DNA of 64,000 nt from Dehalococcoidia bacterium (GCA_965197645.1 OZ240219.1:2464001-2528000); one strand, 5' to 3'. Numbered from the stretch's first letter, positions 3,418-63,010 are shown. Notes: generated from the sequence alone by a model not told the origin. Numbers and translations: made by a program.

Positions 3418-3419
3418 CC

Positions 3420-13728: not shown

Positions 13729-13824
13729 AAAGTCAAACGTCGGCGGGTGCTGCTGTACCGCCCGTAGCGCACCAGGCGAAACTTGGGTTATCCTAGCCGG
13801 GCCCGATCACAAGAGAGGTGGACA

Positions 13825-27375: not shown

Positions 27376-28770
27376 ATGGTCGATAAGCCCAGGGAGGCCT
27401 GCGGGCTCTTCGGTATCTTCGCACCCGGAGAGGACGTAGCCAGGCTTACCTTTTTCGGGCTCTTTGCCCTTCAACATCGCGGCCAGGAGAGCGCCGGCAT
27501 CGCCACGGCGAACGGCGAGCACCTCCGCACCCACACCTCGATGGGCCTCGTCTCCCAGGCATTCGATGAAGAGTCCCTCCAGGGTCTGACCGGTCACATA
27601 GCCATTGGCCACACCCGATACTCCACCACCGGGTCCAGCAAACTGGCCAACGCCCAGCCCGTCAGGGTCAAGAATGGCGCCACCGAGATCGCCGTGGGCC
27701 ACAACGGCAACCTCGTCAACTCGGAACAGCTCCAAGGAGAGCTGATCGACCAAGGAGTAGAGTTCGAAGGCAGCACCGACACCGAAGCAATCGCCCAGTG
27801 GCTGGTCCACGCGCCCGGTAAGACGTGGCCCGATAAGATCCGCTACTGTATGAACCGGTTCCAGGGCGCCTATTCCCTGGTCGTGCTGACACCCGACTCG
27901 CTCATCGGCATCCGGGACCCGCTGGGCGTTAGGCCTCTTGCCCTGGGCAAGCTGAACAACGGATGGGTCCTGGCATCCGAAAGCAGTGCGCTGGACCACA
28001 TCGCCGCCGACATGATACGGGAGGTGGAACCCGGCGAGGCGATTATCATAGATCAATCCGGAATGCATAGCTTCAAGCTCCAGGACCTGGAACGGCAGGC
28101 CCTCTGCATCTTCGAGCATATCTACTTCGCCAGGCCTGATAGCATCGTAGGCGGCAAACTGCTCCACCTGGCGAGGCAGCGCATGGGTGCCCAACTGGCC
28201 ACTGATCACCCGGTTGACGCCGACTTGGTGATCGGCATACCCGATTCGGCGATAGCGGCGGCCATCGGTTACGCCCGTGAGTCGGGCATACCTCTCGGCG
28301 AGGGAGTGCTCAAGAACCGGTACGTCGGCCGTACCTTCATCCAGCCCGACCAGCGCATCCGGGAACTGGGAGTGCGCCTCAAATTCAACGCCATGTCCGA
28401 GGTCCTCGAGGGCCAGAGGGTGATCGTGGTCGACGATAGTATCGTCAGAGGTACGACGACCCCCCACGTGGTCGGCCTGCTTAGAAAGGCGGGCGCCACC
28501 GAGGTACACATGCGGGTCTGCGCTCCGCCCATTCGCTATCCGTGCTTCTTCGGCGTGGACTTCGCGACCCGCAGGGAGTTGATAGCCTCTCAAAACACTG
28601 TCGATGAGATACGCAAGTTCATCGATGCCGACTCCCTGGGTTATCTCAGCGTCGAAGGTCTGATCAAGGCGGTGGGTCTGCCCGATAACAAGGTCTGCAC
28701 GGCCTGCTTTACCGGCGCCTACCCAATCCCGGTTCAGTTGGAGATGGACAAGCTTGCCCTGGAGGCCTAG
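27376..28770 (+). CDS. purF: Amidophosphoribosyltransferase (Fe-S type with propeptide)
   Basis: EACGLFG, QHRGQESAGI, HTRYST, VVDDSIVRGTT, PCFFG, CTACF. Confidence 0.97.
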   Translation: MVDKPREACGLFGIFAPGEDVARLTFFGLFALQHRGQESAGIATANGEHLRTHTSMGLVSQAFDEESLQGLTGHIAIGHTRYSTTGSSKLANAQPVRVKNGATEIAVGHNGNLVNSEQLQGELIDQGVEFEGSTDTEAIAQWLVHAPGKTWPDKIRYCMNRFQGAYSLVVLTPDSLIGIRDPLGVRPLALGKLNNGWVLASESSALDHIAADMIREVEPGEAIIIDQSGMHSFKLQDLERQALCIFEHIYFARPDSIVGGKLLHLARQRMGAQLATDHPVDADLVIGIPDSAIAAAIGYARESGIPLGEGVLKNRYVGRTFIQPDQRIRELGVRLKFNAMSEVLEGQRVIVVDDSIVRGTTTPHVVGLLRKAGATEVHMRVCAPPIRYPCFFGVDFATRRELIASQNTVDEIRKFIDADSLGYLSVEGLIKAVGLPDNKVCTACFTGAYPIPVQLEMDKLALEA

Positions 28771-41974: not shown

Positions 41975-42685
41975 ATGTTGAAACTGAACCAGCGTATAGC
42001 CCAGGCAAAGGACAGCCTGCTTGACCTCCTGTTCCCCCTCTACTGCGTCGGCTGCGGTCGAGAGGGAAGCCTTATCTGTTCCCACTGTCGATCCGACCTG
42101 CCAGCAATAGAGCCTCCCTGGTGCTTCATATGCGGCCTACCTCGGGGAGGTTTCTGCGTCTGTGGCACCGACCGAAGCCGGATCTGGTCCCTTGACGGCA
42201 TCCGCTCCCCTTTCCGGTTCGAAGGCGCCATCAGGGAGGCCGTCCATGGCTTGAAGTACCGCAACATTCGCGGTCTTGCCGGCGTTCTGGCCCGGTTTCT
42301 CGCCCCCTACCTGCACAGCGATGAGATTCCCGCCGACGTTCTGGTCCCCGTGCCTCTACATCGAAAGCGTCTGCGAGAGCGGGGCTACAACCAGTCGGAT
42401 CTGCTGGCCCGCTGCCTTTCCGGGTTGACCGGCGTCCCCTGTAGAACGGACCTCCTATCCCGGGAGCGGCACGCCCTACCCCAGGCGCGGGCTGAGGACA
42501 TACGGCAGCGCAGGTCCAACGTGGTCGATGCCTTCCGAGCCGCAGCTGGCCTCATTCAGGGCGAACGGATTCTTCTCCTGGACGACGTTACGACCACCAG
42601 CTCTACCCTAGAGGCCTGCGCCTCCGAGCTCAAGGCCGCAGGAGCCGGTTCCGTCTGGGCCATCACTGTAGCTCGGGAGCTATGA
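41975..42685 (+). CDS. comF: ComF family protein (zinc ribbon + PRTase)
   Basis: CVGC..CSHC..CFICG, LKY, PVPLH..RLRERGYNQ, LLLDDVTTT. Confidence 0.88.
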   Translation: MLKLNQRIAQAKDSLLDLLFPLYCVGCGREGSLICSHCRSDLPAIEPPWCFICGLPRGGFCVCGTDRSRIWSLDGIRSPFRFEGAIREAVHGLKYRNIRGLAGVLARFLAPYLHSDEIPADVLVPVPLHRKRLRERGYNQSDLLARCLSGLTGVPCRTDLLSRERHALPQARAEDIRQRRSNVVDAFRAAAGLIQGERILLLDDVTTTSSTLEACASELKAAGAGSVWAITVAREL

Positions 42686-43782
42686 AACCCTCCTTCGTGA
42701 CCTTCGTCGGCGGCTGGGGCGATACCCCCGTCGAGCGGATGATGTCCGATGCCCACAGGGCCATGGTCCGGGATACGCTAGAGCAGGCCGCAGCCACCGG
42801 TGCGTTCCAGCAGCTGGTCGTTGTCGCCGACCTCCCCGATCTCGCCGGGAGGGTTTCCGTCGAGCCTCCACTTTCCCCTTTCCACTTCGGTCGCGAGCTC
42901 CGGAGGATCACCCACAAGTACCGCATGGAGAAAGTGTTCTACGTCGGTGGTGGCGCCTTGCCTCTTCTATCAGCCGACCGCATGGCCGAGATTGCAGATC
43001 AGCTGGCCCAATCCGACGACACCGTCATCTCCAACAACCCCTACTCCGGCGATCTGATCGCCTTCACGCCGGCCGCTGCCCTCGATGACATCGAGCTCCC
43101 CGCCATCGATAATCCCCTCCCCCGGCTGTTGGAAGCGGAGGCAGGGCTGACCGGCAACAGCCTGCCCAAGGACGTTACCACCTTGCTGGACGTGGATACG
43201 CCCACCGATCTTGCTATTCTCAGCCTCTATCCATCCACAGGACCGAACCTACGAGAACACCTGGGCGCCGTTGATCTCGACACGCGGAGAATAGAGCAGA
43301 TAGCCAGGCTGATGACCGTCCGAGAGTCGGAGCTGCTGGTGGCCGGTCGCATCGGCAGCTACGCATGGTCCAAGCTGGAGCAGGAGACGGCCTGCCGTAC
43401 CCGGATCATATCCGAGGAGCGAGGCATGCGGACCGACGGCAGAGAGGCCCGGGGATCTGCAAGGTCGGTCCTGGGCCTCCACATCGAGCGGGTCGGCCCC
43501 GGCCGGTTCTTCGAGCATATGGCCCAGCTCGGAGAGGGGGTGATCCTGGACACCCGTGTCCTGTTCAGCCACCTCGGACTCAACCTGGAACCCTCGGACC
43601 GCTACCTATCGGACATGATGCAGCCGGACGGCATCGAAAACGAGTGGCTGCGTGAGTTCACCCAGGCCGCCATAGAAGCGCCCGTGCCGGTGGTGCTCGG
43701 CGGTCATTCCCTCGTCTCGGGAGGGCTCCTGGCCATGATAGACATCGCCTGGTCCGGCGGCGATTCATTTGACAAGGTCTAG
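42682..43782 (+). CDS. Hypothetical protein with CofC/GT-A-like nucleotidyltransferase N-terminal part
   Basis: 366-aa ORF coupled to comF (ATGA overlap); LDVDTPTDL resembles the CofC-type DVDTP.DL motif. Confidence 0.6.
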   Translation: MKPSFVTFVGGWGDTPVERMMSDAHRAMVRDTLEQAAATGAFQQLVVVADLPDLAGRVSVEPPLSPFHFGRELRRITHKYRMEKVFYVGGGALPLLSADRMAEIADQLAQSDDTVISNNPYSGDLIAFTPAAALDDIELPAIDNPLPRLLEAEAGLTGNSLPKDVTTLLDVDTPTDLAILSLYPSTGPNLREHLGAVDLDTRRIEQIARLMTVRESELLVAGRIGSYAWSKLEQETACRTRIISEERGMRTDGREARGSARSVLGLHIERVGPGRFFEHMAQLGEGVILDTRVLFSHLGLNLEPSDRYLSDMMQPDGIENEWLREFTQAAIEAPVPVVLGGHSLVSGGLLAMIDIAWSGGDSFDKV

Positions 43783-49155: not shown

Positions 49156-49176
49156 ACATAACTCACGGAGAGCACC

Positions 49177-49737
49177 CTGATAGACCAAGCCGCCATAGAG
49201 AAGGCCGTTGCCGACATCATAGTAGCTATCGGGGAGGACCCTGATCGAGAGGGACTTCGCGACACCCCGAAGCGGGTCGCCCGGGCCTACGCCGAGATCT
49301 TCTCCGGTCTGGGCAAAGACCCTGTCGAGGAGTTGAGGGTCGGCTTCGAAGAGGGTCATCGGGAGATGGTCATCATCAAAGACCTGCCCTTCTACTCGAT
49401 GTGCGAGCACCACCTGCTGCCCTTCATGGGCACCACCCAGCTGGGCTACATACCGGATGGCAAGGTCATAGGCGTGAGCAAGCTTGCCCGGCTCGTCGAA
49501 GTCCTCTCCCGGCGCCCCCAGCTTCAGGAGCGGCTCACCACCGAGATCGCCGACACCATCACCCGGGCCGTCAACGCCGATGGTGTGGCCGTCCTCACCT
49601 CGGCGGAGCACCTGTGCATGACCATGCGAGGCATAAAGAAGCCGGGCAGCAAGGTGGTAACCTCGGCTATGAGAGGCTATTTCAGAAAGAGCGCCAAGAC
49701 CCGCTCCGAGTTTCTCGCCCTCGTGGGACAGAGCTAG
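49177..49737 (+). CDS. folE: GTP cyclohydrolase I (CTG start inferred)
   Basis: [46 protein letters not shown]; in-frame TAA at 49159. Confidence 0.93.
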
Positions 49738-49757: not shown

Positions 49758-50738
49758 ATGACCAGCCTATCCACCAGCCAGGAAACCTTCGACTCCCTTG
49801 AGGAAAGGTGGCTGGACGTCCTGGACCACTCCATCAACAACAACGTCTTCTATACGCCCACCTGGCAGCGAATGTGGTGGCAGGAGTTCGGGGCCGATAG
49901 CCAGCTCCACCTGTTCGGGTTCAGCCGAAACGGTGTCCTGGAGGGCGTTGCCCCGCTGATGATCTCCGATGGACAGCTCACCTTCGTGGGCAGCAATGAC
50001 GTTTGCGACTACATGGACGTTGTGGTCAGAGAGGGGTCCGAGGATGAGGTCTACCCCCGTTTCGTCGACCTTATGATGGAGCTGGACTGGCGGACCCTAT
50101 TCCTCTCAGGCATAACCGAGCGATCGGCCACCTACGAACGGCTTCCCGACCTGCTGAAACAGCAGGGCCTCACGGTGGAGGTCAGGGCGGAAGAGGTGTG
50201 CCCCAAGATCAATCTCCCCGGCACCTGGGACGAGTACCTTGCCAGCCTCCGAAAGAAAGACCGGCACGAGCTGAGACGAAAAATGAGAAGGCTTGAAAAT
50301 GCCGGTGACGCCAGCTATCATACTGTCCACAATTCTGACGCGTTCCACGACGACTTGGAGGAGTTCCTTTCTCTCCTGATAAACAGCCGGGCCGATAAAG
50401 CCCAGTTCATGACCGCAGAGCGGCAAGGGTTCTTCTACTCGGCCCTCAGTAACATGGCCGAGAAGGGCTATGTGAAGCTGATATTCCTAGAGCTGGACGG
50501 CATCCGAGTCTCCTCCGCGGTCTGCTTTGACTACAATAACTCCTTCTTCTTGTACAACAGCGGCTACAACCCGGACTACTCGTCGCTGAGTGTCGGGTTG
50601 ATTCTCAAGGCCTACTGCCTCAAAGAGGCGATAGAGGAAGGAAAAGACCAGTTCGATTTTCTGAGGGGAGCGGAACCTTACAAGTACCATCTGGGCGCCC
50701 AGGACGAGCCGATATACCGGATCTCAGCGACGAGATAG
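49758..50738 (+). CDS. CelD/BcsL (Acetyltransf_6, FemAB-like) GNAT protein
   Basis: FYTPTW..W, DYMD, WDEYLASLRKKDRHELRRK, YNSGY, FDFLRGAEPYK. Confidence 0.8.
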   Translation: MTSLSTSQETFDSLEERWLDVLDHSINNNVFYTPTWQRMWWQEFGADSQLHLFGFSRNGVLEGVAPLMISDGQLTFVGSNDVCDYMDVVVREGSEDEVYPRFVDLMMELDWRTLFLSGITERSATYERLPDLLKQQGLTVEVRAEEVCPKINLPGTWDEYLASLRKKDRHELRRKMRRLENAGDASYHTVHNSDAFHDDLEEFLSLLINSRADKAQFMTAERQGFFYSALSNMAEKGYVKLIFLELDGIRVSSAVCFDYNNSFFLYNSGYNPDYSSLSVGLILKAYCLKEAIEEGKDQFDFLRGAEPYKYHLGAQDEPIYRISATR

Positions 50739-50779
50739 GGACTGACGACTCTCCCAGTACCCGCAACGAGCTGCCACCC

Positions 50780-52003
50780 ATGGATTGTGACACCTTAAAG
50801 ATAGCTGTGATCAGCGTTCACGGTTGCCCCTTGGCCCGGCTGGGAGAGCGGGATACCGGCGGCATGAACGTCTACCTTCTTCAGCTCGCCAAGGAGCTGG
50901 GAGCGAGGGGAGTTCTCGTCGATGTCTTTACCCGCTATCACGACCCGGCCGACCCCCAGGTGGTAGACCTGGGCCCCAATGCACGGGTGGTCCACATCAA
51001 GGCGGGAGATTGGGACGAGACCAAGAGCAACATCTACCGCCTCCTGCCCGAGTTTGTCGACAATCTAATCGCCTTTCAGAGCGCCAACAACCTGAGCTAT
51101 GATCTATTCCACAGCCACTACTGGCTCTCCGGAACGGCGGTATCGCTGCTGAACCAGTACTTCAACCTGCCTCACATCGCCAGCTTCCATACCCTGGGCG
51201 AGGCCAAGATTAGAGCGCTCTCCAGCGAGTCGGAGAGCGACATCCGGATACAGTCTGAGCGGTCCATCCTCGATACTGCGGACCGTATCATCGCGGTCAG
51301 CACCCAGGACCGCAGCCACATGATCGACTACTACGAGGCGCCTTCAGAAAAGATACGGGTCATTCCCTGCGGCGTGGATATGGAGGTCTTCAGGCCCCGC
51401 GACAAAGCCCAGGCACGAAGAGAGTTGGGTATCTCGGACTCCAAAGTCCTACTCTACGTCGGGAGGGTACAGGCCCTCAAGGGCCCCGATCTCTTGTTGA
51501 AGGCCATCGGTTGCCTGGACGATGACGAAAAACAGGGCCTCAGGCTGCTGGTAGTCGGCGGAGACAAGGACGGGGACGAAGACATCATCCGCCTCAGGGA
51601 ACTCGCTCGCGAGCTGGGCATCGCCGATATGGTCAGCTTCCTGGGCATCGTGGGCCAGAGCCAGGTATCGAGGTACTACAACGCCGCCGACGTGGTCATA
51701 GTGCCCTCTCACTACGAAAGCTTCGGCCTGGTAGCCGCCGAGGCGTTGGCGTGCGGCACCCCTGTTGTCGCCTCAAGGGTCGGAGGGTTGACCGAGACCG
51801 TCAAGGACGGGGTGAACGGCTACCTGGTCTCGTGGCGCTGCCCGGAGTCCTTCGCCGAGCGGATAGAGCTTCTCCTGAACAACGAGTATCTGAGAAATGC
51901 CCTGGGCGCTCAGGCCCGGAAGTCGGTGGCCAGGCTCAACTGGCCCGTGGTGGCGGACCAGGTCCAAGAGCTGTACCGCACCGTCGCTGAGAGCCGTAAC
52001 TAG
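50780..52003 (+). CDS. mshA: GT4 glycosyltransferase, MshA-like (D-inositol-3-phosphate glycosyltransferase)
   Basis: ISVHGCPL...DTGGMNVY, DVFTR, HSHYWLSG, FHT, VGRVQALKG, PSHYESFGLVAAEALACGTPV. Confidence 0.75.
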   Translation: MDCDTLKIAVISVHGCPLARLGERDTGGMNVYLLQLAKELGARGVLVDVFTRYHDPADPQVVDLGPNARVVHIKAGDWDETKSNIYRLLPEFVDNLIAFQSANNLSYDLFHSHYWLSGTAVSLLNQYFNLPHIASFHTLGEAKIRALSSESESDIRIQSERSILDTADRIIAVSTQDRSHMIDYYEAPSEKIRVIPCGVDMEVFRPRDKAQARRELGISDSKVLLYVGRVQALKGPDLLLKAIGCLDDDEKQGLRLLVVGGDKDGDEDIIRLRELARELGIADMVSFLGIVGQSQVSRYYNAADVVIVPSHYESFGLVAAEALACGTPVVASRVGGLTETVKDGVNGYLVSWRCPESFAERIELLLNNEYLRNALGAQARKSVARLNWPVVADQVQELYRTVAESRN

Positions 52004-52010
52004 GCGGGCT

Positions 52011-52919
52011 TCACAGCCTGCGTTCGTACCAGAGGGTAACCGCCCTTCTCTTGAACCCCCCGCCAGTGTAGATCTTGTGGGCGCTGGGGTTCCCACTGTC
52101 CACCGTCAGGTGTACCTCGTCCGCCCCCGCGCCTCTCAGGTAATCTACGCCTGCCCTCATCACCGCCACCCCTAGACCGAGGCCTCGATACTCAGGATGG
52201 CTGCCCATCATCCCTATGAACCCCGTCTTCGTTCCCCCCACCTCTTCGATGCGGGTCCAGTTGAACCCTATGGGCTTCTCTCCCTCGACGATGAACAGGA
52301 TTCCTTCGGGGCGGTAGATGCTCATGTGCGCCCGGTACCGGACGTCTTCGATGGTGTTTGGGCAGAATCCCCAGTGGCGGCTGAAGGATAGGTTCAGGAT
52401 ACTCATCAGGTTTTCCTCGTCCCCCTCGGCCCACGAGCGCAAACGGAACCCCGAAGGTATCATCGGCGGCGGCACCTGGGATGGATCGCTCTGGCCCATC
52501 TCCCAGTACTTGCGAACCTGCTTGAACCCCATCTCCTTTGCCAGGCGACGGGTACGCAGCGCTCCGTACGGCGTGGGGATGTGAGCGATCTTTATCCCCG
52601 TCTTCTCCGCCAGCTCCACCGATCTTCCCACCAACCCGGCTCCGGCGCCCCGACCCAGATATTCCGGGTCCACGCCGCCCTCCATCACTATCCTCTTCAA
52701 CGGGTACTCCAGCGAGTTCTGCAGATAACCTATGGGCCTGTCGCCTTCATAGGCTAGGAAAAGGTCCTCTTCGGGATTGAGGTTCGGCTGACCAAGCCGC
52801 TCCCTTATACGATCGCTGTTGATCGCCGTCCACCAGGTGTCTGGGCCGTGCACCCGTACCGACAGGTCGAAGAAGGCCTCCAGGTCGCTCCAGCGGAAGT
52901 TCTTGACGTGGATAGCTAT
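52011..52919 (-). CDS. Tandem-GNAT acetyltransferase, MshD-like (ATA start inferred)
   Basis: Two GNAT repeats (VDPEYLGRGAG; GFNWTR..GSHPEYRGLGLG..LTVDSGN..YTGGGF); extended -10 TGCTACAAT at 52983-52991. Confidence 0.65.
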   Translation of the reverse strand: MAIHVKNFRWSDLEAFFDLSVRVHGPDTWWTAINSDRIRERLGQPNLNPEEDLFLAYEGDRPIGYLQNSLEYPLKRIVMEGGVDPEYLGRGAGAGLVGRSVELAEKTGIKIAHIPTPYGALRTRRLAKEMGFKQVRKYWEMGQSDPSQVPPPMIPSGFRLRSWAEGDEENLMSILNLSFSRHWGFCPNTIEDVRYRAHMSIYRPEGILFIVEGEKPIGFNWTRIEEVGGTKTGFIGMMGSHPEYRGLGLGVAVMRAGVDYLRGAGADEVHLTVDSGNPSAHKIYTGGGFKRRAVTLWYERRL

Positions 52920-53061
52920 GGAGTTCTCCCGGAAAGTGAAGGTTGAGTGTCGAGATTGTTTAGGGTTGACACTTCGGCCACGATTGTAGCAAAGTAATTC
53001 GTCGCCAGCAATTGAACACACCCCAGGATACCCCCCCGATCCTAGACTCACCAGGAGACCA

Positions 53062-53766
53062 TTGATGGATTCAACCCCCCAACGAGTGGCAGTAGTCACA
53101 CCTCACCCCGACGACTTCGAGATCGGGTGCGCCGGAACGGTAGCGAAGTGGATCAAAGAGGGGGCCGAGGCGGTACTGATAGTATCCACCAACGGAGACA
53201 AGGGCACTGAAGACCCCGAGATGACGTCCGAGAAGCTGGCCGCCATCAGACGGCAGGAACAGCTGAATGCCGCTGAGGTGATCGGTCTCAAGGAGGTGGT
53301 CTTCCTCGATTACCCGGACGGCAGCCTAGAGGACAGCGTGGAGTTCCGCGGCCAGCTCGTCCGGCTGTTCCGCCTCCACAGGCCGGAGGTGGTCTTCACT
53401 ACGGACCCTTTCCGGCGCAGCCATTACATCCATCGGGACCATCGCATGGCCGGCCACGTATCATTGGACGCGGCTTTCCCCTACGCCCGGGACAGGCTCC
53501 ACTTTCCCGATCATGCCAAAGAAGGGTTGATGCCCCACAAGGTCCAGCAGCTCTACTTCTGGGGCAGCGAAGACCCGGACACTTTCGAGGATATCTCCAT
53601 CTCCATAGACCTGAAAATCGAGGCTCTCAAGTGTCACCTCAGCCAGATCTCCGCCGACGACGGATGGAACGTGGACGAGGGCATCAGGGAATGGGCCAGC
53701 AGCCATGGCAAAGACCACAGTATGGAGTATGCCGAGGCCTTCCGGGTCTTTAACTTCCGCGATTAA
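53062..53766 (+). CDS. PIG-L family deacetylase (MshB/BshB-like)
   Basis: PHPDD, TNGDKG, R..E, LDYPDG, HRDH, KIEALKCHLSQ. Confidence 0.88.
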   Translation: MMDSTPQRVAVVTPHPDDFEIGCAGTVAKWIKEGAEAVLIVSTNGDKGTEDPEMTSEKLAAIRRQEQLNAAEVIGLKEVVFLDYPDGSLEDSVEFRGQLVRLFRLHRPEVVFTTDPFRRSHYIHRDHRMAGHVSLDAAFPYARDRLHFPDHAKEGLMPHKVQQLYFWGSEDPDTFEDISISIDLKIEALKCHLSQISADDGWNVDEGIREWASSHGKDHSMEYAEAFRVFNFRD

Positions 53767-53778
53767 CGAAGGTGTCTG

Positions 53779-54528
53779 TTGTTTGATCTACATTCCCACA
53801 TCCTTCCCGGCCTCGACGATGGCGCAAAATCGATGCGTGAGGCGGTCGAGATGGTCCGGGTTGCCGCCGAGGACGGCACCCGGGCAATTCTAGCGACACC
53901 CCACAGCAAGGACGTGCAGGAAGCATCGGCCCACCGGCAGGTGCTCGACGCCATCGACACCCTTCGAAGCCAGGCCAAGGCCGCCGGAATCGACATCGAT
54001 ATCCTGCTGGGAATGGAAAACCACGTGACACCGAACCTGCCACTCCTGGTCGAAAAGGGCGTGGGCTATCCGATAAACGGCCATGGCTACATCCTAGTCG
54101 AGCTACCTTTCCACAGCTACCCCGACTACGTTGACGATGTGCTATCGGAGCTTCTGCATGAAGGCTACACACCCATCGTGGCCCATCCTGAGCGGCAGGA
54201 ATCGATACAACGGGACCTCTCCATCATGGAGCGGCTGGTGGAACTAGGGATCATGGGACAGGTGACGTCCACCAGCATCACCGGCAGGTTTGGACCCGAC
54301 GTCTTACAGTTTGCGCGGACCCTGATGGAGAGAGACCTGGTCCATCTCATAGCATCCGATTGTCATCGGCCCACCGGGCCCCGGTCTCCGGCCATGGCGG
54401 AGGCGGTGAAGGAGGCGGCCAGGCTTGTGGGCGCCGATAGGGCTAACGCGATGGCCGTATCCATCCCCCAAGCCATCCTGGAGGGCCGGCCGGTGGAGAT
54501 GGGCTTGCCAGCCAAGAAAAACAGTTGA
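53779..54528 (+). CDS. CpsB/CapC-type PHP protein-tyrosine phosphatase
   Basis: DLHSHILPGLDDGA, ATPH, LVELP, AHPER, ASDCH. Confidence 0.88.
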   Translation: MFDLHSHILPGLDDGAKSMREAVEMVRVAAEDGTRAILATPHSKDVQEASAHRQVLDAIDTLRSQAKAAGIDIDILLGMENHVTPNLPLLVEKGVGYPINGHGYILVELPFHSYPDYVDDVLSELLHEGYTPIVAHPERQESIQRDLSIMERLVELGIMGQVTSTSITGRFGPDVLQFARTLMERDLVHLIASDCHRPTGPRSPAMAEAVKEAARLVGADRANAMAVSIPQAILEGRPVEMGLPAKKNS

Positions 54529-54540: not shown

Positions 54541-55437
54541 ATGGGCTATAGCGAGCTACAAGACCGCCTGGCGAACGATGAGATAGTAGTCCTGGATGGC
54601 GGTATGGGGACGGAGGTAAAGCGACGGACCGGCAAGCCTGGGACCAGCGTCCTAGCCGTGAACGAAATGGTCGAGTCTCCCGACCTGATCAAGAGCATTC
54701 ACACCTCTTACATCGATGCCGGCGCCGACGTGATCACCGCCAACACCTACGACTTGAACGGCCCGGCCCTGGCTAAACCCGGCCTCGACGCCGATGATGC
54801 CTGGCCCTTGACATCGCAGGCCGTTCGTATCGCCCGGGAAGCCAGGGAAGAGGCAACAAACGGCCGGGATGTCCTCATAGCCGGCTCCCTCGGCCCCCTG
54901 GGCTCCGACTACGATCCCGACGACGTCCCCGACTACGATACCTGCCTCGCCGCCTACCGGGAACAGGTCGAGGTTATGGCAGATGAAGGGGTGGACATGG
55001 TCCTGGTAGAAACGACGGCCCGGGTGCGGTCTGCCAGAGCCGGGGTTGCTGCGGCGGCGGAAGTTGGCCTGCCCGCCTGGGCCGCACTCCTGGCCGATGA
55101 TCACGGCCGGGTGAAAAGCGCTGAGCCGCTGGACGCTGCCGTTGATACCCTCGTCTCCGAGGGCGCTTCAGCCGTCCTCATCAACTGCACTCAACCGCCC
55201 CAGGTATCAAGGGCCATGGAGAGTTTGTCCCAGTATCAGCGGGTCCCCTTCGGGGCCTACGCTCAGGCGGCAGTCTACACAGGCAAGGGTTGGGAGTTCG
55301 GACCATCCAGGACTCCTCAGGAGTATCTCGACTGCGCCCGAGACTGGGTCTCGAAGGGCGCCCGAATCGTCGGCGGCTGCTGCGGCACCAACCCGGACCA
55401 CATCAAAGCTCTCCGGTCCCATTTCTCCCAGCCGTAA
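54541..55437 (+). CDS. Homocysteine S-methyltransferase family protein
   Basis: LDGGMGTE, YIDAGAD, AGSLGP, INC, GGCCGT zinc ligands. Confidence 0.88.
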   Translation: MGYSELQDRLANDEIVVLDGGMGTEVKRRTGKPGTSVLAVNEMVESPDLIKSIHTSYIDAGADVITANTYDLNGPALAKPGLDADDAWPLTSQAVRIAREAREEATNGRDVLIAGSLGPLGSDYDPDDVPDYDTCLAAYREQVEVMADEGVDMVLVETTARVRSARAGVAAAAEVGLPAWAALLADDHGRVKSAEPLDAAVDTLVSEGASAVLINCTQPPQVSRAMESLSQYQRVPFGAYAQAAVYTGKGWEFGPSRTPQEYLDCARDWVSKGARIVGGCCGTNPDHIKALRSHFSQP

Positions 55438-55517: not shown

Positions 55518-56570
55518 ATGGCCGCTTCCAATCTCGCAGGAAAAGTCCAGACCGTTCTCGGGACCATCGAACCCGACGACCTAGGGGTAACTGTCACCCA
55601 CGAACACCTGTTGATGAACTTCAAACCCCTTTTCGTCGAGCCGACCACCGCCGGGGACAGGGGCATCTCCCAGAGACCGATCACGCTGGACGATCTGGCC
55701 TGGATCCGGTTCAACTGGGCCAGCCACTGGAGCCATCTGGGGCTGGAAAACGAGACCGAAGCCATTGAAGAGGTCGCCCTGTACTATCGGGCCGGCGGCC
55801 AGAGCCTCGTCGAGGCCAGCAGCATCGGGCTGGGACGGGACCCGATGGGCCTGGCGAGGATCTCCCGGGCCACGGGCCTCAACGTGATCATGGGTTCGGG
55901 CTACTACCTGGACAACTTCCAGACCGACGCATGGCGAAACGCCAGCGAAGACCAATTGGTCGAAACGATAATCGGCGACCTCACCGAAGGCGTAGACGAC
56001 ACGGGCATCAAATCGGGCATCATCGGCGAAATCGGATGTTCCTGGCCGTGGACCGATAACGAGCGAAAGTCGGTCCGAGCCGCCGCTCGCGCCCAGCGAG
56101 AGACGGGCGCTCCCCTCATCATCCACCCCGGCCGTCATCACTCGGCGCCGAAGGAGATCACCCAGGTCATCGCCGAGTCCGGCGGAGACCTGAGTCGCAC
56201 GATCATGAGCCACATCGATCGCACCATCTCGGACATCGACATCGTTCTGGACCTGGCCAAGACCGGCTGCTGCCTGGAGTACGATCTGTTCGGCCTCGAG
56301 AGCGCCATCTATCCCTTGGCGCCCGTAGACATGCCCAACGATGGCGCGAGAGTAGACCACATCATCCGCCTGGCACAGGAGGGGCATCTGGAGCAGGTGG
56401 TCGTCGCCCACGATACCGCCTTCCAGACCCGCTACGTCCGATACGGAGGCCACGGCTACGCCCATCTGTTGAACAACGTAGTGCCACTGATGCGCCGCAA
56501 GGGCATGACCCGGGAGCAGATCGACACGATATTCATCGAGAACCCCAAGCGCGTCCTGACCTTCACTTAG
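55518..56570 (+). CDS. Phosphotriesterase-related protein
   Basis: VQTVLG, THEHL, GLGRD, GIIGEIG, IHP, SH, HD, GGHGY, ENPKR. Confidence 0.9.
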   Translation: MAASNLAGKVQTVLGTIEPDDLGVTVTHEHLLMNFKPLFVEPTTAGDRGISQRPITLDDLAWIRFNWASHWSHLGLENETEAIEEVALYYRAGGQSLVEASSIGLGRDPMGLARISRATGLNVIMGSGYYLDNFQTDAWRNASEDQLVETIIGDLTEGVDDTGIKSGIIGEIGCSWPWTDNERKSVRAAARAQRETGAPLIIHPGRHHSAPKEITQVIAESGGDLSRTIMSHIDRTISDIDIVLDLAKTGCCLEYDLFGLESAIYPLAPVDMPNDGARVDHIIRLAQEGHLEQVVVAHDTAFQTRYVRYGGHGYAHLLNNVVPLMRRKGMTREQIDTIFIENPKRVLTFT

Positions 56571-57261: not shown

Positions 57262-58395
57262 TCAACTGAAACCGTACAACCGCGCCGCGTTGGAGTAACT
57301 TATCTTCTCCTGCTCATCCTCCGGCACCCCCGCCAGCACCTCCTGCAGCACCTTCCTCGAGTTGGGCCACGTCGATTCCCGGTGCGGATAGTCGGAACCG
57401 AACATAATGTTGTCCACGCCTATGACCTCTCGGAGGGCTATGCCCAGGGGGTCCTCCTGAAAACACACGAACACGTTCCGACGAAAGACATCGCTGGGCG
57501 TCTTGCCGTCCTTGAACTTTATCTCGGTCACGTACCGGTGCTTCTCGTAGGCCATGTCCATTTGCCAGATGAAATAGGGCGCCCAAGAGAGCTCGTACTC
57601 CACCACGCCGACCTTCAGCTTCGGATGGCGCTCGAAGACGCCGCCGAAGATCATGTTGGCCACCGAGCGACGAACCCAATAGTCCTGAGTGGCACGAAAG
57701 GCCGACGTACCCCGAACACCGGCGTTGTTGGCAAAGGCGCCGATGCGCCCGGGCCCCGGCCTAGCTGATCCCGAATGCATGCCGATGGGCAGCCCGATCT
57801 CCTCGGCAGCGGCCCAGAACGGCTCGAACTCCGGCTCGTCATAGTGGCGCTCCTCGGACTGGTACGCCGGAATCACCAACCCACTGAGCCCCATTTTGGC
57901 GCAGCGCCGGGCCTCGGTCACAGCCTCGCCGATGTCATCGAAGCTGATCACCCCGGTGCCCTTCAGCACTCCTGGATAGGCTCGACCAAAATCCGCCGAC
58001 CAATCGTTCAGCGCCCGAAAGCAGGCCGAAAGGAGCTCGCCGCGGACGTCGACGGTATACAGCCTCGTGCCGATGGTGGAGTAGACCAGCTCTCCCACCA
58101 CCCCATCCACCTCCATTGCCTTGAGCCGCTCGTGGGGATCGTAGGCCGCAGCGGGCGACTCTTCGTAGCTGCCCTCGATTTGCAGCTTCTCCAGGTCCGT
58201 GTACCGGCGTCCCGCTTGGGTGGGTCCTCCGATGGAGCCGATCAGTATGTCTTCATCGACTACCCAGTTATCGACGTCCCCCTGCCGTACAACCCGGGGC
58301 GCCCTGTCACGGAACTCCCGTTCCGTGTAGTTCTGCCACAGGTCCGGCGGCTCCACCACGTGAGAGTCGGCCGAGATCAGCCTGTCCAGCGCCAT
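57262..58395 (-). CDS. Amidohydrolase_2 family protein
   Basis: ISADSHVVEP, YDPHER, NDW, PFWAAAEE...MH, GVFERHPKLK, GSDYPH. Confidence 0.9.
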   Translation of the reverse strand: MALDRLISADSHVVEPPDLWQNYTEREFRDRAPRVVRQGDVDNWVVDEDILIGSIGGPTQAGRRYTDLEKLQIEGSYEESPAAAYDPHERLKAMEVDGVVGELVYSTIGTRLYTVDVRGELLSACFRALNDWSADFGRAYPGVLKGTGVISFDDIGEAVTEARRCAKMGLSGLVIPAYQSEERHYDEPEFEPFWAAAEEIGLPIGMHSGSARPGPGRIGAFANNAGVRGTSAFRATQDYWVRRSVANMIFGGVFERHPKLKVGVVEYELSWAPYFIWQMDMAYEKHRYVTEIKFKDGKTPSDVFRRNVFVCFQEDPLGIALREVIGVDNIMFGSDYPHRESTWPNSRKVLQEVLAGVPEDEQEKISYSNAARLYGFS

Positions 58396-58481
58396 AACTG
58401 CCCGTCCTTCAACAGGGTGTGAAAACTCCTTTTAGACCATCCCACCAGTCTTCTTCCTGCTCAGGAAGAGGGTAGAAATTG

Positions 58482-58538
58482 GATCTGAGGGACACCCTCA
58501 GACCCCCGGCAAAGGGGCTTCGCTCCTCTGCACACCTC
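58482..58538 (-). repeat. Dispersed two-hairpin repeat, copy A2
   Basis: Reverse complement gaggtgtgcagaggagcgaagcccctttgccgggggtctgagggtgtccctcagatc versus 16186-16242; adjacent hairpin tcttcctg-ct-caggaaga (58452-58469). Confidence 0.85.
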
Positions 58539-58554
58539 ATCGTTCGTCAGTCGG

Positions 58555-59544
58555 TTACCCTTCCGACCTCTTCTTCGCCAGCGAGCTGATCGCCTCCATC
58601 ACCACCCTGTTGGCAATGACGGACGTGATGTTGCCCGGGGTATCCCAGGCCGGCAGCACCTCGCTCACGTCCATCCCTACTATGTTCACCCTGGACACGA
58701 TGTACCGCACCGCCCGCAGCAGCTCCATGGAGGTCATCCCGCCCGGCTCCAGGCCCCCCGTCCCGGGGGCGTGGCTGGGATCCAGCACGTCGATGTCCAC
58801 CGAAAGGAACATATACTCGGGGCCGTCCAACGCCTCGTTGATGGCGTCCTCCAGCACGGCGTCGAACCCCCGCTCCTCTATCTCCGACATCAGGTGCCAG
58901 CGCATCCCCTGCTCTTTCATCCAGCGGAATATACTGGGCGGAGGCAGGTAACCCCGCAGGCCCACTTCGATGTAGTTCTCGCCCTTCACGATTCCCCGCT
59001 CGAGGAGCCGCCGTACCGGGGTGCCGTGGTTGACGAGAGAACCCCCGTAGCTCTCCGGGAAGGTATCGGCGTGGGCATCGAAGTGAAGCACGCCCACGTT
59101 TCCGTTTCCGTATCGTTCGGCGACCGCCGTGGTATCGGGCAGCACAATGGTATGGTCTCCTCCCAGCACGATAGGGACCGCCCCCACGTCCACCACCTCT
59201 TTCACCTTGCTGCGGATCGCCTCCATGCTCTCGTCGACCATGTTGGGAGGGCAGTTTGCGTCGCCGTAGTCCACGGCCTTGAGTATCTTCAAAGGCTGTA
59301 CGCCCATGCCGAGGTGATGACTGGGCCAGGGCGGGCTGCCCACGTAGTTGGCCGCTCGGATTGCGTTGGGCCCGAACCGCTGTCCGGGCATTATCACCGC
59401 CCCACTATCGAAGGGAGCGCCGACGATGGCGACGTCGGGCTCCATCTCCCTCAGCTCGTCGGCATCCATGGCGTAAGGGAAATGGTTGAAGGTCTGGAGT
59501 CCTACGTAGCTGGGTCCGCCGCCGGGCGGGTTCAGGTCGGGCAT
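58555..59544 (-). CDS. Ureohydrolase (agmatinase/arginase family), second of tandem pair
   Basis: GAPFD, RFGP, GGDH, DAHAD, HGTP, SVDIDVLDP, GTGGLEPGG, EV. Confidence 0.92.
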   Translation of the reverse strand: MPDLNPPGGGPSYVGLQTFNHFPYAMDADELREMEPDVAIVGAPFDSGAVIMPGQRFGPNAIRAANYVGSPPWPSHHLGMGVQPLKILKAVDYGDANCPPNMVDESMEAIRSKVKEVVDVGAVPIVLGGDHTIVLPDTTAVAERYGNGNVGVLHFDAHADTFPESYGGSLVNHGTPVRRLLERGIVKGENYIEVGLRGYLPPPSIFRWMKEQGMRWHLMSEIEERGFDAVLEDAINEALDGPEYMFLSVDIDVLDPSHAPGTGGLEPGGMTSMELLRAVRYIVSRVNIVGMDVSEVLPAWDTPGNITSVIANRVVMEAISSLAKKRSEG

Positions 59545-59573
59545 CCTAATCGCCTCCGCTGATCGGGCCGTCT

Positions 59574-60566
59574 TTATCTGCTCCGCTTGAGGGCCAGTGC
59601 ACTTATCACCTCCAGCACCACCCGGTGCGCCACCTCGGCGGTCACCGCTCCGTGATCATCGAAGGGGGGCGAAACCTCGACCAGGTCCATCGCCACCAGG
59701 TCTACCGCAGCTACTATGCGCCTCATGGAACGCAGCAGCTCGCTGGGGAGGATCCCGCCCGGTTCAGGGGTTCCGGTACCTGGAGCAAACCCTGGGTCCA
59801 GCACGTCTATATCCACTGAGAGGTAGATGTATTCGGGCCCGTCCAAAGCCTCGTTTATAGCCTGTTCGATAACCTCATTGAAGCCCCGGTCCTCGATCTC
59901 CGCCATCAGGTGCCAGCGCATCCCCTGGGCCTCCATCCACTGCCACACCTCCTCCGGCGGCCAGTAGCCTCGAAGCCCGATCTGCACGAAGTTCTTGGCG
60001 GGAACGGCCCCGCTGTCTATGAGCCTACGCATCGGGCTGCCGTGGGCAATTAACGCCCCGCCGAAGCTGTCGGGAGCCGTATCCGCGTGGGAGTCGAAGT
60101 GGATGATGCCCACCTTGCCGTGTCCCCATCTATCGGCCACGGCGGTAGCCGAGGGCAGCGTTATCGAATGGTCGCCGCCTAGCACCACCGGTAGGACCCC
60201 GGCGCCCACCACTTGACCCACCTTGTCCAGAATCGCCTGGTGGGCCAGCTCCAGCGAGTGGGGCGAGCAGTTGGCGTCCCCGAAGTCCACCACCTTCAGC
60301 ACCTGGAACGGCTTCACACCCGTGGGTATGTGGTACATCGGCTCCACCGGGCTTCCGCCCACGTACCCCGCCGCCATCCGTATCGCTCGGGGGCCGAAGC
60401 GCGTGCCCGGCCGGATGGTGGTGCCCATGTCGAAGGGTGCGCCCATGATGGCGATGTCCGGCTTCGTTTCCCGAAGCTCCTCCAGCGTGGACACGTAGGG
60501 CAGCTTGGAGAAGGTCGCCAGGCCGATGTAGGAGGGTTCGCCGTATTGCGAATAGTCGTTGGTCAT
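59574..60566 (-). CDS. Ureohydrolase (agmatinase/arginase family), first of tandem pair
   Basis: GAPFD, RPGTRFGP, GGDH, DSHAD, HGSP, SVDIDVLDP, GTGTPEPGG, EVSP. Confidence 0.92.
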   Translation of the reverse strand: MTNDYSQYGEPSYIGLATFSKLPYVSTLEELRETKPDIAIMGAPFDMGTTIRPGTRFGPRAIRMAAGYVGGSPVEPMYHIPTGVKPFQVLKVVDFGDANCSPHSLELAHQAILDKVGQVVGAGVLPVVLGGDHSITLPSATAVADRWGHGKVGIIHFDSHADTAPDSFGGALIAHGSPMRRLIDSGAVPAKNFVQIGLRGYWPPEEVWQWMEAQGMRWHLMAEIEDRGFNEVIEQAINEALDGPEYIYLSVDIDVLDPGFAPGTGTPEPGGILPSELLRSMRRIVAAVDLVAMDLVEVSPPFDDHGAVTAEVAHRVVLEVISALALKRSR

Positions 60567-60575
60567 AGTTCCGCC

Positions 60576-60727
60576 ATTCTACAGAGTGGACATATGGCGT
60601 TCAAGCCGACCTGCTGGATAGCGGTCTCGCCCTAGGCGTACCCGTCCAGTGCACTGTGTCCCTTTCAGGCGGCATGCCAAGGCGGAGACGGCTGGCATTT
60701 GACCCGTTGCCGCTCCAAACGTATATT
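60576..60727. promoter_or_regulatory. Divergent promoters between ureohydrolase genes
   Basis: Minus: TTGAAC-N17-TAGAAT (60604-60576). Plus: TTGACC-N17-TATATT (60699-60727). Confidence 0.6.
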
Positions 60728-60757
60728 TACCCTCAACCCACTCTCCGGAGGTATACC

Positions 60758-61813
60758 ATGGCGGACACCGGCCAGGAATTCATCAGCTATTACTCGGGCT
60801 TCCCTTCCTTTTTCAAGTCTCCCATCATCACGCCCAATGACATCGAAGAAGGGATGGTCGTCGTTGCCGGCGTGCCCCTGGACGAGGGGATCAACATGGG
60901 AAGGAAGGGCGCCCGGTATGGCCCGCGAGGCATCCGCGAGGGCACCTACAAGTATCGAACGGTGCAGGAGGTGGCCGAGGACCGCACCACGGTGGACATC
61001 GACTCTAACCTCGGGTTCCGGTACAAGGGCGACCACGTCATAGGTGATATCGGCGACTTCGCCATTTCGCCCCAGGACATTCTACAGACCACCGAGAACG
61101 TGGCCAACGGAGTGAGCGACATAGTGCAACGAGGCGGGCTGCCCGTGGTCCTGGGAGGCGACCACTACGTCTGCTATCCCTCCTTTCTCGGATTCGCCCG
61201 GGGGATGATCGAGCGAAAGTCCAACCCCCGCATCGGCTATCTTCACATAGACAGCCACGCCGACTTTTGGGACCAGCTCCAGGGAGCGAGCCGATACAAT
61301 CACGGCACCTCGGTGCGGCGCATCAGCGAAAACTCCTCCATCTCCTACAAGAACATGGCCTGGCTTGGGCTCAACGGCGCCGGCATGGACCCCGAGCAGT
61401 ACCGGATGTATACCAATCACAGCCTGAAGATGCTCACTGCTAAGATGATGATGGACAGGGGCATCGATGAGGCCGTCAAGGAGGTGATGGAGGTGGCCGC
61501 CGAGAGCGTAGACGCCGTCTACGTAAGCATAGACATCGACGTGGTTGATGGCTCGGAAGCTGCCGGCACAACAGCCTGCGTATACCAGGGAATCCGCGCG
61601 AGAGAGTTCCTCTACCTCACCTCGGTGCTCAGCCAGTTCGACATCGTCAAGGGCATCGACATCTGCGAGGTGTCCCCACCCCTGGACCCCACCGGCCGAA
61701 CGGTCCACTTGGCGGCACTGGGCGTCCTGTCCGTGCTGAGCCCCAAGCTCTTCGATACCGTCGACATGACCACGGGAAAGGTACTGGAAGGCCACTCCGG
61801 CTTCAGCTACTAG
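60758..61813 (+). CDS. Divergent ureohydrolase (arginase family)
   Basis: GVPLD, GARYGP, GGDH, DSHAD, NHGT, SIDIDVVD, EVSP; ATG after SD GGAGGT. Confidence 0.88.
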   Translation: MADTGQEFISYYSGFPSFFKSPIITPNDIEEGMVVVAGVPLDEGINMGRKGARYGPRGIREGTYKYRTVQEVAEDRTTVDIDSNLGFRYKGDHVIGDIGDFAISPQDILQTTENVANGVSDIVQRGGLPVVLGGDHYVCYPSFLGFARGMIERKSNPRIGYLHIDSHADFWDQLQGASRYNHGTSVRRISENSSISYKNMAWLGLNGAGMDPEQYRMYTNHSLKMLTAKMMMDRGIDEAVKEVMEVAAESVDAVYVSIDIDVVDGSEAAGTTACVYQGIRAREFLYLTSVLSQFDIVKGIDICEVSPPLDPTGRTVHLAALGVLSVLSPKLFDTVDMTTGKVLEGHSGFSY

Positions 61814-61867
61814 AGCCAGGTTACATTCTTAGCCGGCAACCGATAACCGACACGGGGGAACAGTTCT

Positions 61868-63010
61868 ATGGATACGACGTTTGTCGATGCCGACGGGCAC
61901 ATCCTGGAACCGGGTGACCTCTGGGACAACAACCTGGAGCCCGAGTACCGGGACCGGTCCATGCACTTCGAAAAAGATGCAAACGGCTTGGAGCAGTGGG
62001 TGATTGACGGCAAGGTGAACACATTCCTGTCCAAGGGCACTTCGGCCAACATGGCTACCATGGGCAAGGACCAGCAATGGCGCAGGGAGAACATCTATGA
62101 AAGGCCCTCCGTTAGCTGGGAGGAGGGCCGCGCCATGAACCCGGGCGCCGGGGACCCCCACGAGCGGATCAAGGTGATGGACAGCGAGGGTATAGATAAG
62201 AGCATCCTGTATCCCTCCCTCGGCCTCGACTGGCCTGGTTCCGTCGACGACCCCCAGCTCCTCGCTGCATATTGCCGGGTCTACAACGATTGGATCACCG
62301 ACTTCTGCCGCCCCTACCCGTCGAGGCTCTTCCCCGCACTGCTGCTGCCCTGGACGGACGTATCCGAGATCGTCAAGGAGCTGAAAAGAACGGCAATCAT
62401 AGGACCCAGGGCGGTAATGGTGCCCGGCCTTCCCTTCGGAGACATCGCCTACGGTCGGGAGCACTGGGACCCGGTCTGGGCCGAGCTCCAGGACCAGGAC
62501 CTGCCGCCCGCCCTCCACGTATCCAGCGGCGGCACCAGCATCGGCGGGCTCATGTACCCTGAGCTGGAGACCCCCCAATGGTGGGGCTTCGCCTCCGGTT
62601 CCCACAACATCCAGATCGCCTTCATGACCTTCTTCCAAGGCGCCGTCTTCGACCGGTTCCCGGAGCTGAAACTGGTGGTACTGGAGTCGGGCTGCATGTG
62701 GATGCCCTTCGTCCTGGAGCGCATGGATGAGAAGTTCGAAATTCTCGGTTTCACCACTCCAATGAAGCACAGGCCTAGCGAGTACTTTCAGAAGCAGGGC
62801 TGGATAGCCATGGACCCCGACGACGAGTTCGCCACCACGGTCATAGACCTCATCGGCGCCGACAAGCTGGTCTGGGCCTACGACTACCCTCACTCCGATT
62901 CGCCCCTGGCTCCCGTGGCCAGTCTTATCGAGAACCTGAAAGACCTGCCCGAGGACGACCAGCGGAAGGTGATGGGCCGGAACGCCATCGATCTGTACAA
63001 GCTCAGCTAG
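61868..63010 (+). CDS. Amidohydrolase_2 family protein
   Basis: DADGHILEP, DPHER, YNDW, WDPVWA...LH, AVFDRFPELK, ESG, DYPH. Confidence 0.9.
   Translation: MDTTFVDADGHILEPGDLWDNNLEPEYRDRSMHFEKDANGLEQWVIDGKVNTFLSKGTSANMATMGKDQQWRRENIYERPSVSWEEGRAMNPGAGDPHERIKVMDSEGIDKSILYPSLGLDWPGSVDDPQLLAAYCRVYNDWITDFCRPYPSRLFPALLLPWTDVSEIVKELKRTAIIGPRAVMVPGLPFGDIAYGREHWDPVWAELQDQDLPPALHVSSGGTSIGGLMYPELETPQWWGFASGSHNIQIAFMTFFQGAVFDRFPELKLVVLESGCMWMPFVLERMDEKFEILGFTTPMKHRPSEYFQKQGWIAMDPDDEFATTVIDLIGADKLVWAYDYPHSDSPLAPVASLIENLKDLPEDDQRKVMGRNAIDLYKLS

Follow-up and report, generated by a model that had tools for sequence, protein, structure and literature searches.

The described pathways closest to the locus reported here are those of mycothiol and bacillithiol, in which a family 4 glycosyltransferase (GT4) and a PIG-L deacetylase prepare a glucosamine that is then acylated by an ATP-dependent cysteine ligase, MshC or BshC. 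Mycothiol synthesis proceeds through MshA, MshA2, MshB, MshC and MshD, as set out in the available text of PMC2628429, and the available part of a survey of finished genomes reports complete mshA-D sets only in Actinobacteria and mentions no complete glutathione, mycothiol or bacillithiol pathway for Chloroflexi (PMC6282198). Two further systems bear on the comparison, namely the FemXAB-type aminoacyl-tRNA-dependent transferases, among them Orf11, which glycylates the amino sugar streptothrisamine with Gly-tRNA as donor (PMC12945691, available part), and the cyanobacterial (Thermosynechococcus) sucrose-phosphate synthase (SPS) TeSPS, in which two arginines hold the acceptor phosphate (PMC7264703, available part). 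Here we analyze a 64,000-nucleotide stretch of a Dehalococcoidia bacterium (GCA_965197645.1, OZ240219.1:2464001-2528000), referred to as the window, with positions counted from its first nucleotide, and within it a locus of five genes encoding a two-domain Gcn5-related N-acetyltransferase (GNAT) of the Acetyltransf_6 family, an MshA-like GT4, a second (tandem) GNAT, a PIG-L deacetylase and a PHP phosphatase. An earlier note, made from the sequence alone, had read the first four genes as a mycothiol-like cluster lacking MshC in which the first, FemAB-like GNAT might supply the missing aminoacylation. Open reading frames (ORFs) and domain matches place these four genes where that note had them, and the motifs it quoted (DTGGMNVY, HSHYWLSG, FHT, GFNWTR, LTVDSGN and RKKDRHELRRK) all occur in the translations. 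The reading we favor, to which we give about an even chance, is that of a conserved Chloroflexota module that would make a small glucosamine conjugate akin to mycothiol or bacillithiol, an N-(amino)acyl-glucosaminide, and in which a Fem-fold transferase would replace the ATP-dependent cysteine ligase (MshC or BshC).

Like actinobacterial mycothiol synthesis, the locus has a GT4 for which MshA is both the best family and the best solved relative, a PIG-L/LmbE deacetylase and a tandem GNAT of MshD architecture, and its linked phosphatase could fill the MshA2 step. Unlike that pathway, it has no MshC in the window or linked to it in 80 related loci, its family scores fall below the equivalog cut-offs, its GT4 lies in a separate clade, its PIG-L protein is not MshB-like, and its genes are clustered, the Fem-fold enzyme included, in a Chloroflexota host. 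Bacillithiol synthesis likewise combines a GT4 and a PIG-L deacetylase with subsequent acylation of glucosamine, and the best NCBIfam family of the PIG-L protein is BshB1; however, the scores fall short of the cut-offs (BshA 129 of 273.7 bits, BshB1 95 of 182.5 bits), no BshC family was found in the scanned window ORFs, and the GT4 keeps residues that align with the presumed phosphate site of CgMshA, for which BshA, given its malate acceptor, would have no need. TeSPS (6kih) falls in the same GT4 subgroup (257 bits) and shares basic residues that bind a phosphorylated acceptor as well as a dedicated phosphatase step, which is predicted for the module, whereas the deacetylase and the two GNATs linked to the GT4 here set the module apart, implying that an N-acetyl-hexosamine is donated and that N-acylation comes later.

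Conserved linkage of the Fem-fold GNAT and the GT4

For comparison, we took the best 80 of at least 580 confirmed relatives of the Fem-fold GNAT, drawn from contigs of one genome per species and comprising 58 loci from Dehalococcoidia, 12 from unclassified Chloroflexota, 4 from Anaerolineae, 3 from Thermoflexia, 2 from Chloroflexia and 1 from a Nitrospiraceae-labelled bin. The GT4 was matched in 75 of these loci (tblastn with the window proteins), with more than half its length covered in 73; one of the two partial matches is cut by a contig end (L041) and the other is not (L073). Based on a strict rule, requiring the GT4 on the same strand and starting no more than 1.5 kb downstream of the GNAT, the GNAT-then-GT4 pair was present in 74/80 loci: 57/58 in Dehalococcoidia, 12/12 in unclassified Chloroflexota, 2/2 in Chloroflexia, 2/4 in Anaerolineae and 1/1 in the 'Nitrospiria' bin. 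Adjacency that recurs in so many loci makes the gene arrangement more than chance. Absence of this linkage in relatives had been named in the earlier note as grounds for abandoning its idea, and the linkage holds, including where flanking synteny is gone: among the 17 loci without the upstream thrC/folE synteny, 12 keep the pair, five of them with PIG-L next in line, and these 12 span Dehalococcoidia, Anaerolineae, Chloroflexia and the Nitrospiraceae-labelled bin.

The remaining genes follow a recognizable order. PIG-L lies directly after the GT4 in many loci, including the distant L051, L052, L053 and L070, and this position points to N-acetylglucosamine (GlcNAc) as the donated sugar. The gap between the PIG-L and PHP phosphatase genes is at most 134 bases in 9 of the 15 loci with a phosphatase, among them two in which the pair is displaced by 8 kb and lies on the opposite strand; L024 has its phosphatase gene directly 3' of the GT4. 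Unbiased clustering of neighboring ORFs also brought out a DUF502 membrane protein encoded between the GT4 and the tandem GNAT or PIG-L genes in 29 loci; by tblastn it was matched in 34/80 loci and had no match in the window. In loci within the range L003-L064, its gene lies roughly 2.0-2.5 kb (5.1 kb at most) past the start of the GNAT, as at L006:12254-13003.

Fold and family of the GNAT

The first GNAT belongs to PF13480 (Acetyltransf_6), which it matched with 97.5 bits over residues 167-309 (gathering score 22), while its match to TIGR03019, the XrtA/PEP-CTERM-associated FemAB family, reached 20.7 bits (E 1.8e-4; cut-off 260). We detected 5601 homologues at E <= 0.001, nearly all of about 326 aa; those named among the best 120 come from metagenome-assembled genomes of Dehalococcoidia or Chloroflexi, and in a search of the ESM Atlas the only returns were Chloroflexota members of this same family. 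Modelled with AlphaFold2 on an alignment of 29 sequences (mean predicted local distance difference test score, pLDDT, 95.8), the protein has the two-GNAT-domain Fem fold. When the model was compared with the PDB using Foldseek, the top match was FemX of Weissella viridescens (template modelling score, TM, 0.66-0.68; E 6e-14), next came S. aureus FemX and FemA (query-normalised TM 0.66), and then MprF aminoacyl-phosphatidylglycerol synthase domains. Sba18/Sbb17, deposited under the title 'aminoacyl-tRNA-dependent peptide synthase complexed with streptothrisamine', gave a query TM of 0.61-0.63 and a target TM of 0.68-0.69. All matches with a query-normalised TM above 0.55 are aminoacyl-tRNA-dependent enzymes (FemX, FemA, MprF and Sba18/Sbb17) bar one, the uncharacterised Bacteroides protein 2hqy (0.58), whereas coenzyme A (CoA)-dependent tandem GNATs, namely VipF, the clavulanate tandem GNAT and glucosamine N-acetyltransferase, reached 0.39-0.53.

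Two invariant elements of the family alignment can be set beside FemXAB: a basic helix, K/R-K-D/N-R-H-E-L-R-R-K (R169, H170, E171, R174, K175, R177 and R178), and an E-x-Y-K motif near the C-terminus (E306, Y308 and K309). In FemX, an aromatic residue followed by lysine near the C-terminus presumably contacts the 3' end of the tRNA. The classical CoA-loop motif of GNATs is Q/RxxGxG/A, and it is not evident in the family consensus. A search for the GNAT within longer, fused proteins returned five, none of MshA type. Two fusions, neither in the window and each known from a single cluster, combine Acetyltransf_6 with a generic, not MshA-type GT4 (P0123, 27% identity) and with an ATP-grasp domain (P0125).

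Absence of a linked cysteine ligase

Pfam or NCBIfam scans of 59 window ORFs found no tRNA-synt_1e, MshC or BshC family, and a six-frame tblastn search with E. coli cysteinyl-tRNA synthetase (CysRS; query from locus L081) across the window and the 80 loci (1,451,320 bases) gave a best match of only E = 0.39. Both results bear out the claim that the window holds neither MshC nor BshC, and no MshC-like or CysRS-like gene turned up there or, across the 80 loci, at a distance of up to 10 kb from the GNAT. Three candidates in the window were considered and rejected: thrC as a cysteine synthase (it is a threonine synthase, TIGR00260 at 308 bits), a 547-aa ORF at 13783-15426 as BshC (M20 amidohydrolase-like) and a CysRS-sized ORF at 27376-28770 (purF-like).

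An MshA-like GT4 in a distinct clade

Both GT4 halves were found in the glycosyltransferase by domain scan, and its best NCBIfam family is MshA (TIGR03449, 378.6 bits; cut-off 462.5), with glgA_Coryne (150 bits) and BshA (129 bits) as runners-up. Among solved structures, the scores were 275 bits for CgMshA (3c48/3c4q), 257 bits for TeSPS and 89 bits for BshA (5d00), and the sucrose-phosphate synthase family TIGR02472 reached 94 bits against a cut-off of 576. In an alignment read by hand, N30, K82, Y114, H137, T138 and R156 of the GT4 align with N25, K78, Y110, H133, T134 and R154 of CgMshA, residues assigned to its inositol-phosphate site. Since sucrose-phosphate synthase shares a phosphate site, these residues do not single out inositol; judged from the alignment, they argue for a phosphorylated acceptor rather than for inositol in particular.

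A full-library search returned 2190 representatives of 50%-identity clusters at E <= 1e-30. When the first 110 of the best 150 representatives were scanned, MshA was the only strong family in 110/110 (scores 262-469), and one sequence reached its cut-off. We also built a FastTree phylogeny of 212 rows, consisting of the window GT4, 68 GT4s linked to the GNAT and the 143 representatives, out of 150, with lengths of 330-470 aa (seven were dropped), a set that includes no labelled actinobacterial MshA. The 69 linked GT4s, that of the window included, grouped with 130 representatives on one side, and the three sequences that reach or approach the MshA cut-off fell with 10 others on the opposite side, with Shimodaira-Hasegawa-like support of 93-97. 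Because of these family scores and the tree split, we regard the GT4 as MshA-like yet a member of a distinct large clade. One fusion outside the window, P0214, known from a single cluster, joins an MshA-like GT4 to an SIS_2 sugar-phosphate domain.

Deacetylase, phosphatase and tandem GNAT

The deacetylase matched PF02585 with 109.9 bits and, among NCBIfam families, BshB1 best (95 bits; cut-off 182.5), with MshB (TIGR03445) at 35.6 bits against a cut-off of 224.35. Its best match in the PDB was an archaeal diacetylchitobiose deacetylase (131 bits), BshB-type entries scored 61-64 bits, and no MshB chain was matched at E <= 1e-3. The PHP protein matched PF19567 with 191.9 bits and is a candidate phosphatase for a glycoside-phosphate intermediate, in an MshA2-like or sucrose-phosphate phosphatase-like step. 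Its gene lies beyond the coordinates of the earlier note and belongs with the set as a fifth member.

For the tandem GNAT, the best family is MshD (TIGR03448, 102 bits; cut-off 163.1). Its AlphaFold2 model (pLDDT 92.4) matched MAB_4324 ahead of all others in Foldseek (TM 0.87), with TM values of 0.73-0.78 for MshD (1ozp/2c27), 0.75 for a Sphaerobacter GNAT (3tt2) and 0.76 for glucosamine N-acetyltransferase. The model therefore has a tandem GNAT fold, but the MshD score of the protein is under the family cut-off and MAB_4324 and 3tt2 ranked higher. Its model ranks CoA-type tandem GNATs and MshD first, the reverse of the pattern seen for the Fem-fold GNAT, and on this structural prediction the tandem GNAT is CoA-type, unlike the Fem-fold protein.

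Proposed pathway

From the genes, families, folds and linkage observed here we infer every chemical step of the following pathway, the simplest scheme using all linked genes, which by analogy would follow the five-step logic of mycothiol synthesis with a non-homologous enzyme at the ligase step. The MshA/SPS-type GT4 is proposed, from its family and its conserved phosphate-site residues, to move GlcNAc from UDP-GlcNAc to a phosphorylated acceptor, and the PHP phosphatase, judging by gene order, would then remove the phosphate. As its family suggests, the PIG-L enzyme would take off the N-acetyl group and expose the 2-amine. The Fem-fold GNAT may next acylate this amine; its fold and the precedent of Orf11 suggest that the group added is most likely an amino acid donated by aminoacyl-tRNA. 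Finally, the CoA-type tandem GNAT is proposed as the N-acetyltransferase of the last step, where it would acetylate the new alpha-amine as MshD does. Aminoacyl-tRNA as the donor, which is suggested by the modelled fold, is a tentative assignment that we place slightly below an even chance. Cysteine as the transferred residue is a much more doubtful proposition, and it is equally improbable in our judgment that Chloroflexota make a novel cysteine-glucosamine thiol whose cysteine is delivered from Cys-tRNA by the Fem-fold transferase, with no ATP-dependent ligase.

Several observations weigh against the proposed pathway. The GNAT scored 20.1 bits with Pfam FemAB_like, under the cut-off of 27, and its best NCBIfam match is BspF (35.7 bits, residues 158-294), which carries the NCBIfam name crotonyl transferase; because PF13480 also includes BspF, an acyl-CoA donor is possible. 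When the family profile was searched against the PDB, no solved Fem protein was matched, the sole, chance-level match being curcumin synthase (E 0.82). Although the fold is shared with FemXAB, Orf11/Sba18/Sbb17 included (TM 0.61-0.68), sequence identity to these proteins is 11-15%, the Pfam family is Acetyltransf_6 rather than FemAB, and the genomic context is neither that of peptidoglycan synthesis nor that of an antibiotic cluster. The family of the Fem-fold GNAT has no member of known chemistry. Recurrent neighbors across the 80 loci include no gene resembling an aminoacyl-tRNA synthetase (aaRS), tRNA gene, thiol-disulfide enzyme or inositol-phosphate synthase, and no linked tRNA gene or aaRS paralogue was found. 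As for the linkage itself, the sample consists of the best 80 loci of at least 580 relatives, and the Dehalococcoidia loci are not independent, as thrC/folE are also conserved upstream and much of the linkage there could be inherited synteny. The GNAT occurs without the GT4 in five loci (3 Thermoflexia, 2 Anaerolineae), where its neighbors gave no lead, and the other genes show partial occurrence within 10 kb of the GNAT (PIG-L 49/80, tandem GNAT 25/80, PHP phosphatase 15/80).

What remains of the idea of mycothiol or an analogue made with FemAB-like acylation is consequently its general shape, supported by the linkage, the Fem fold and the lack of a linked ligase, and not its mycothiol assignment. 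'Mycothiol' is too specific, as no protein reaches the curated Msh or Bsh equivalog cut-offs; the GT4 falls into another clade than the sequences that reach or approach the MshA cut-off and scores almost as well with SPS (257 bits) as with C. glutamicum MshA (275 bits); and the PIG-L protein has an archaeal diacetylchitobiose deacetylase, not MshB, as its closest solved relative. 'FemAB-like' is apt for the two-domain fold and for best solved matches that are tRNA-dependent, including an amino-sugar aminoacylase, but not for the FemAB_like profile.

Alternative explanations

In a pathway of the same shape, the Fem-fold GNAT could instead use acyl-CoA, giving an N-acylated glucosaminide that serves as a non-thiol solute or a glycolipid head group. 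We consider this unlikely, though it fits the best NCBIfam match (BspF, a crotonyl transferase by name), the filing of PF13480 as an acetyltransferase domain, the name 'CelD/BcsL family acetyltransferase' carried by JGI homologues and the lack of a linked tRNA or aaRS gene. Against it, Foldseek places tRNA-dependent enzymes (TM 0.56-0.68) over CoA-dependent tandem GNATs (0.39-0.53), the CoA-loop motif is not evident in the consensus, and the cluster already has a CoA-type tandem GNAT, whose presence makes better sense if a new amine is put in place by the first acylation. The GNAT and GT4 might alternatively act in envelope glycoconjugate synthesis, on an aminoacylated polysaccharide or glycolipid rather than a soluble cofactor, in the manner of the PEP-CTERM/exopolysaccharide FemAB proteins and CelD/BcsL. 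The weak match to TIGR03019 (E 1.8e-4), the DUF502 membrane protein that 29 loci encode between the GT4 and PIG-L (34/80 loci by tblastn), the generic GT4-Acetyltransf_6 fusion P0123 and the membership of the PHP gene in the capsule-type CpsB family lean this way. Yet the GT4 belongs to the soluble MshA/SPS type, not to a lipid-linked one, and its phosphate-site residues are conserved, the related loci show no recurrent flippase, polymerase, chain-length regulator or additional glycosyltransferase, the window is without DUF502, and P0123 is not MshA-type, so that an envelope role seems decidedly unlikely.

Ordinary mycothiol or bacillithiol synthesis, with an mshC or bshC gene at another place in the genome and an unrelated role for the Fem-like GNAT, would account for MshA, MshD and BshB1 being the best family matches, and the ligase search was confined to the window and the 80 related loci. 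Every score is nevertheless under its equivalog cut-off, the GT4 clade is distinct from the sequences that reach or approach the MshA cut-off, complete mshA-D sets are reported only in Actinobacteria (PMC6282198, available part), and the GNAT-GT4 pairing in 74/80 loci is left unexplained; we hold this very unlikely. That same pairing is unexplained if the product of the GT4 and the PHP phosphatase is a neutral compatible solute of disaccharide type, as with SPS and its phosphatase, and the deacetylase and both GNATs are bystanders. A TeSPS score (257 bits) near that of CgMshA, the phosphatase gene directly after the GT4 in L024 and the existence of the MshA-like GT4-SIS fusion P0214 speak for such a solute, but PIG-L is directly 3' of the GT4 in many loci, distant ones included, and TIGR02472 reached 94 bits against a cut-off of 576. 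The solute explanation is, in our view, extremely improbable.

Gene layout and other features of the window

Table 1. Coordinates of the module genes and of other features in the 64-kb window
Feature	Position	Strand	Details
Fem-fold two-domain GNAT (Acetyltransf_6)	49758-50738	+	326 aa, ATG at 49758
MshA/SPS-type GT4 glycosyltransferase	50780-52003	+	407 aa, 41 bases 3' of GNAT
CoA-type (by model) tandem GNAT, MshD/MAB_4324 architecture	ORF 52011-53099, listed as 52011-53021	-	Start uncertain
LmbE/PIG-L family GlcNAc de-N-acetylase	53065-53766 (ORF also callable from 53062)	+	233 aa
CpsB/CapC-type PHP metal phosphatase	53779-54528	+	249 aa, 12 bases 3' of PIG-L
folE	49162-49737	+	
Homocysteine S-methyltransferase-family gene	54541-55437	+	12 bases after PHP phosphatase
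Phosphotriesterase-family gene	55518-56570	+	
Urease genes	2732-5096		
Small ankyrin-repeat protein	5167-5580	-	
ORF	12012-12542	+	176 aa
ORF, DNA polymerase III delta' match	16464-18680	+	738 aa
ORF	42682-43782	+	366 aa
Amidohydro_2 gene	57262-58395	-	
Arginase/agmatinase-family paralogue	58555-59544	-	
Arginase/agmatinase-family paralogue	59574-60566	-	
Arginase/agmatinase-family paralogue	60656-61813	+	
Amidohydro_2 gene	61868-63010	+	

The tandem GNAT ORF lies on the opposite strand and ends at a stop at 52011; taken to its full length (Table 1), it overlaps the PIG-L gene. Its homologues begin at about residue 60 of the ORF (near 52925), and there is an in-frame GTG at 53021. A scan for promoters and terminators returned background level, and no tRNA genes were found in the 64-kb window. 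The genes upstream of the module are housekeeping genes, encoding serine hydroxymethyltransferase, ribosomal proteins S6 and S18, the single-stranded DNA-binding protein SSB, homoserine dehydrogenase, threonine synthase and FolE. If folE starts at the TTG at 49333, its first ATG, GTG or TTG, the match to the GTP cyclohydrolase I profile begins only at position 50-57. The frame is open from the 5' end listed in Table 1, and a plausible N-terminus without a canonical start codon is encoded there, which hints at an unconventional initiation codon, for example CTG or ATT.

Downstream of the module, the homocysteine S-methyltransferase-family gene belongs to a family of Zn-dependent thiol methylation and scored 172 bits against the NF007020 cut-off of 215; the phosphotriesterase-family gene comes next. 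At this position, both genes are window-specific, and elsewhere in the related loci homocysteine methyltransferase matches occur in 2/80 (27-30% identity, other positions) and the phosphotriesterase-family gene in 1/80. Three arginase/agmatinase-family paralogues flanked by two Amidohydro_2 genes follow, and, judging from these families, positions 57262-63010 look like a cluster for the breakdown of guanidino compounds. At the other end of the window, the small ankyrin-repeat protein is encoded beside an ABC-2 exporter pair, just after the urease genes. The 738-aa ORF matches DNA polymerase III delta' only at residues 408-728; its first 400 residues have no family match, third-position GC content is low (0.60), and the ORF is probably over-extended or covers a second gene. 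The ORFs of 366 and 176 aa have no Pfam or NCBIfam family at E <= 0.01.

Implications for Chloroflexota

Judged by titles and abstracts, no description of the module was found in the searched literature on low-molecular-weight thiols in Chloroflexota and on Fem-type transferases. According to the available part of PMC6336425, a novel thiol, not named there, has been detected in Chloroflexus aurantiacus; together with the finished-genome survey, this report makes the thiol reading an attractive, if improbable, one. If that reading is true, a cysteine-glucosamine thiol would be for Chloroflexota what mycothiol is for Actinobacteria, low-molecular-weight thiols would gain their first tRNA-dependent route of synthesis, and the compound could account for the thiol of C. 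aurantiacus. Should the Fem-fold enzyme carry out the acylation, it would be a non-homologous replacement of MshC or BshC, and tRNA-dependent aminoacyl transfer would reach into core small-molecule metabolism, beyond cell walls, lipids and antibiotics. For the phosphatase step in such pathways, the linked PHP enzyme is a candidate. With at least 580 confirmed relatives of the GNAT and thousands of protein homologues, the module is widespread among Chloroflexota relatives, and it offers a concrete gene set for a large, environmentally abundant phylum.

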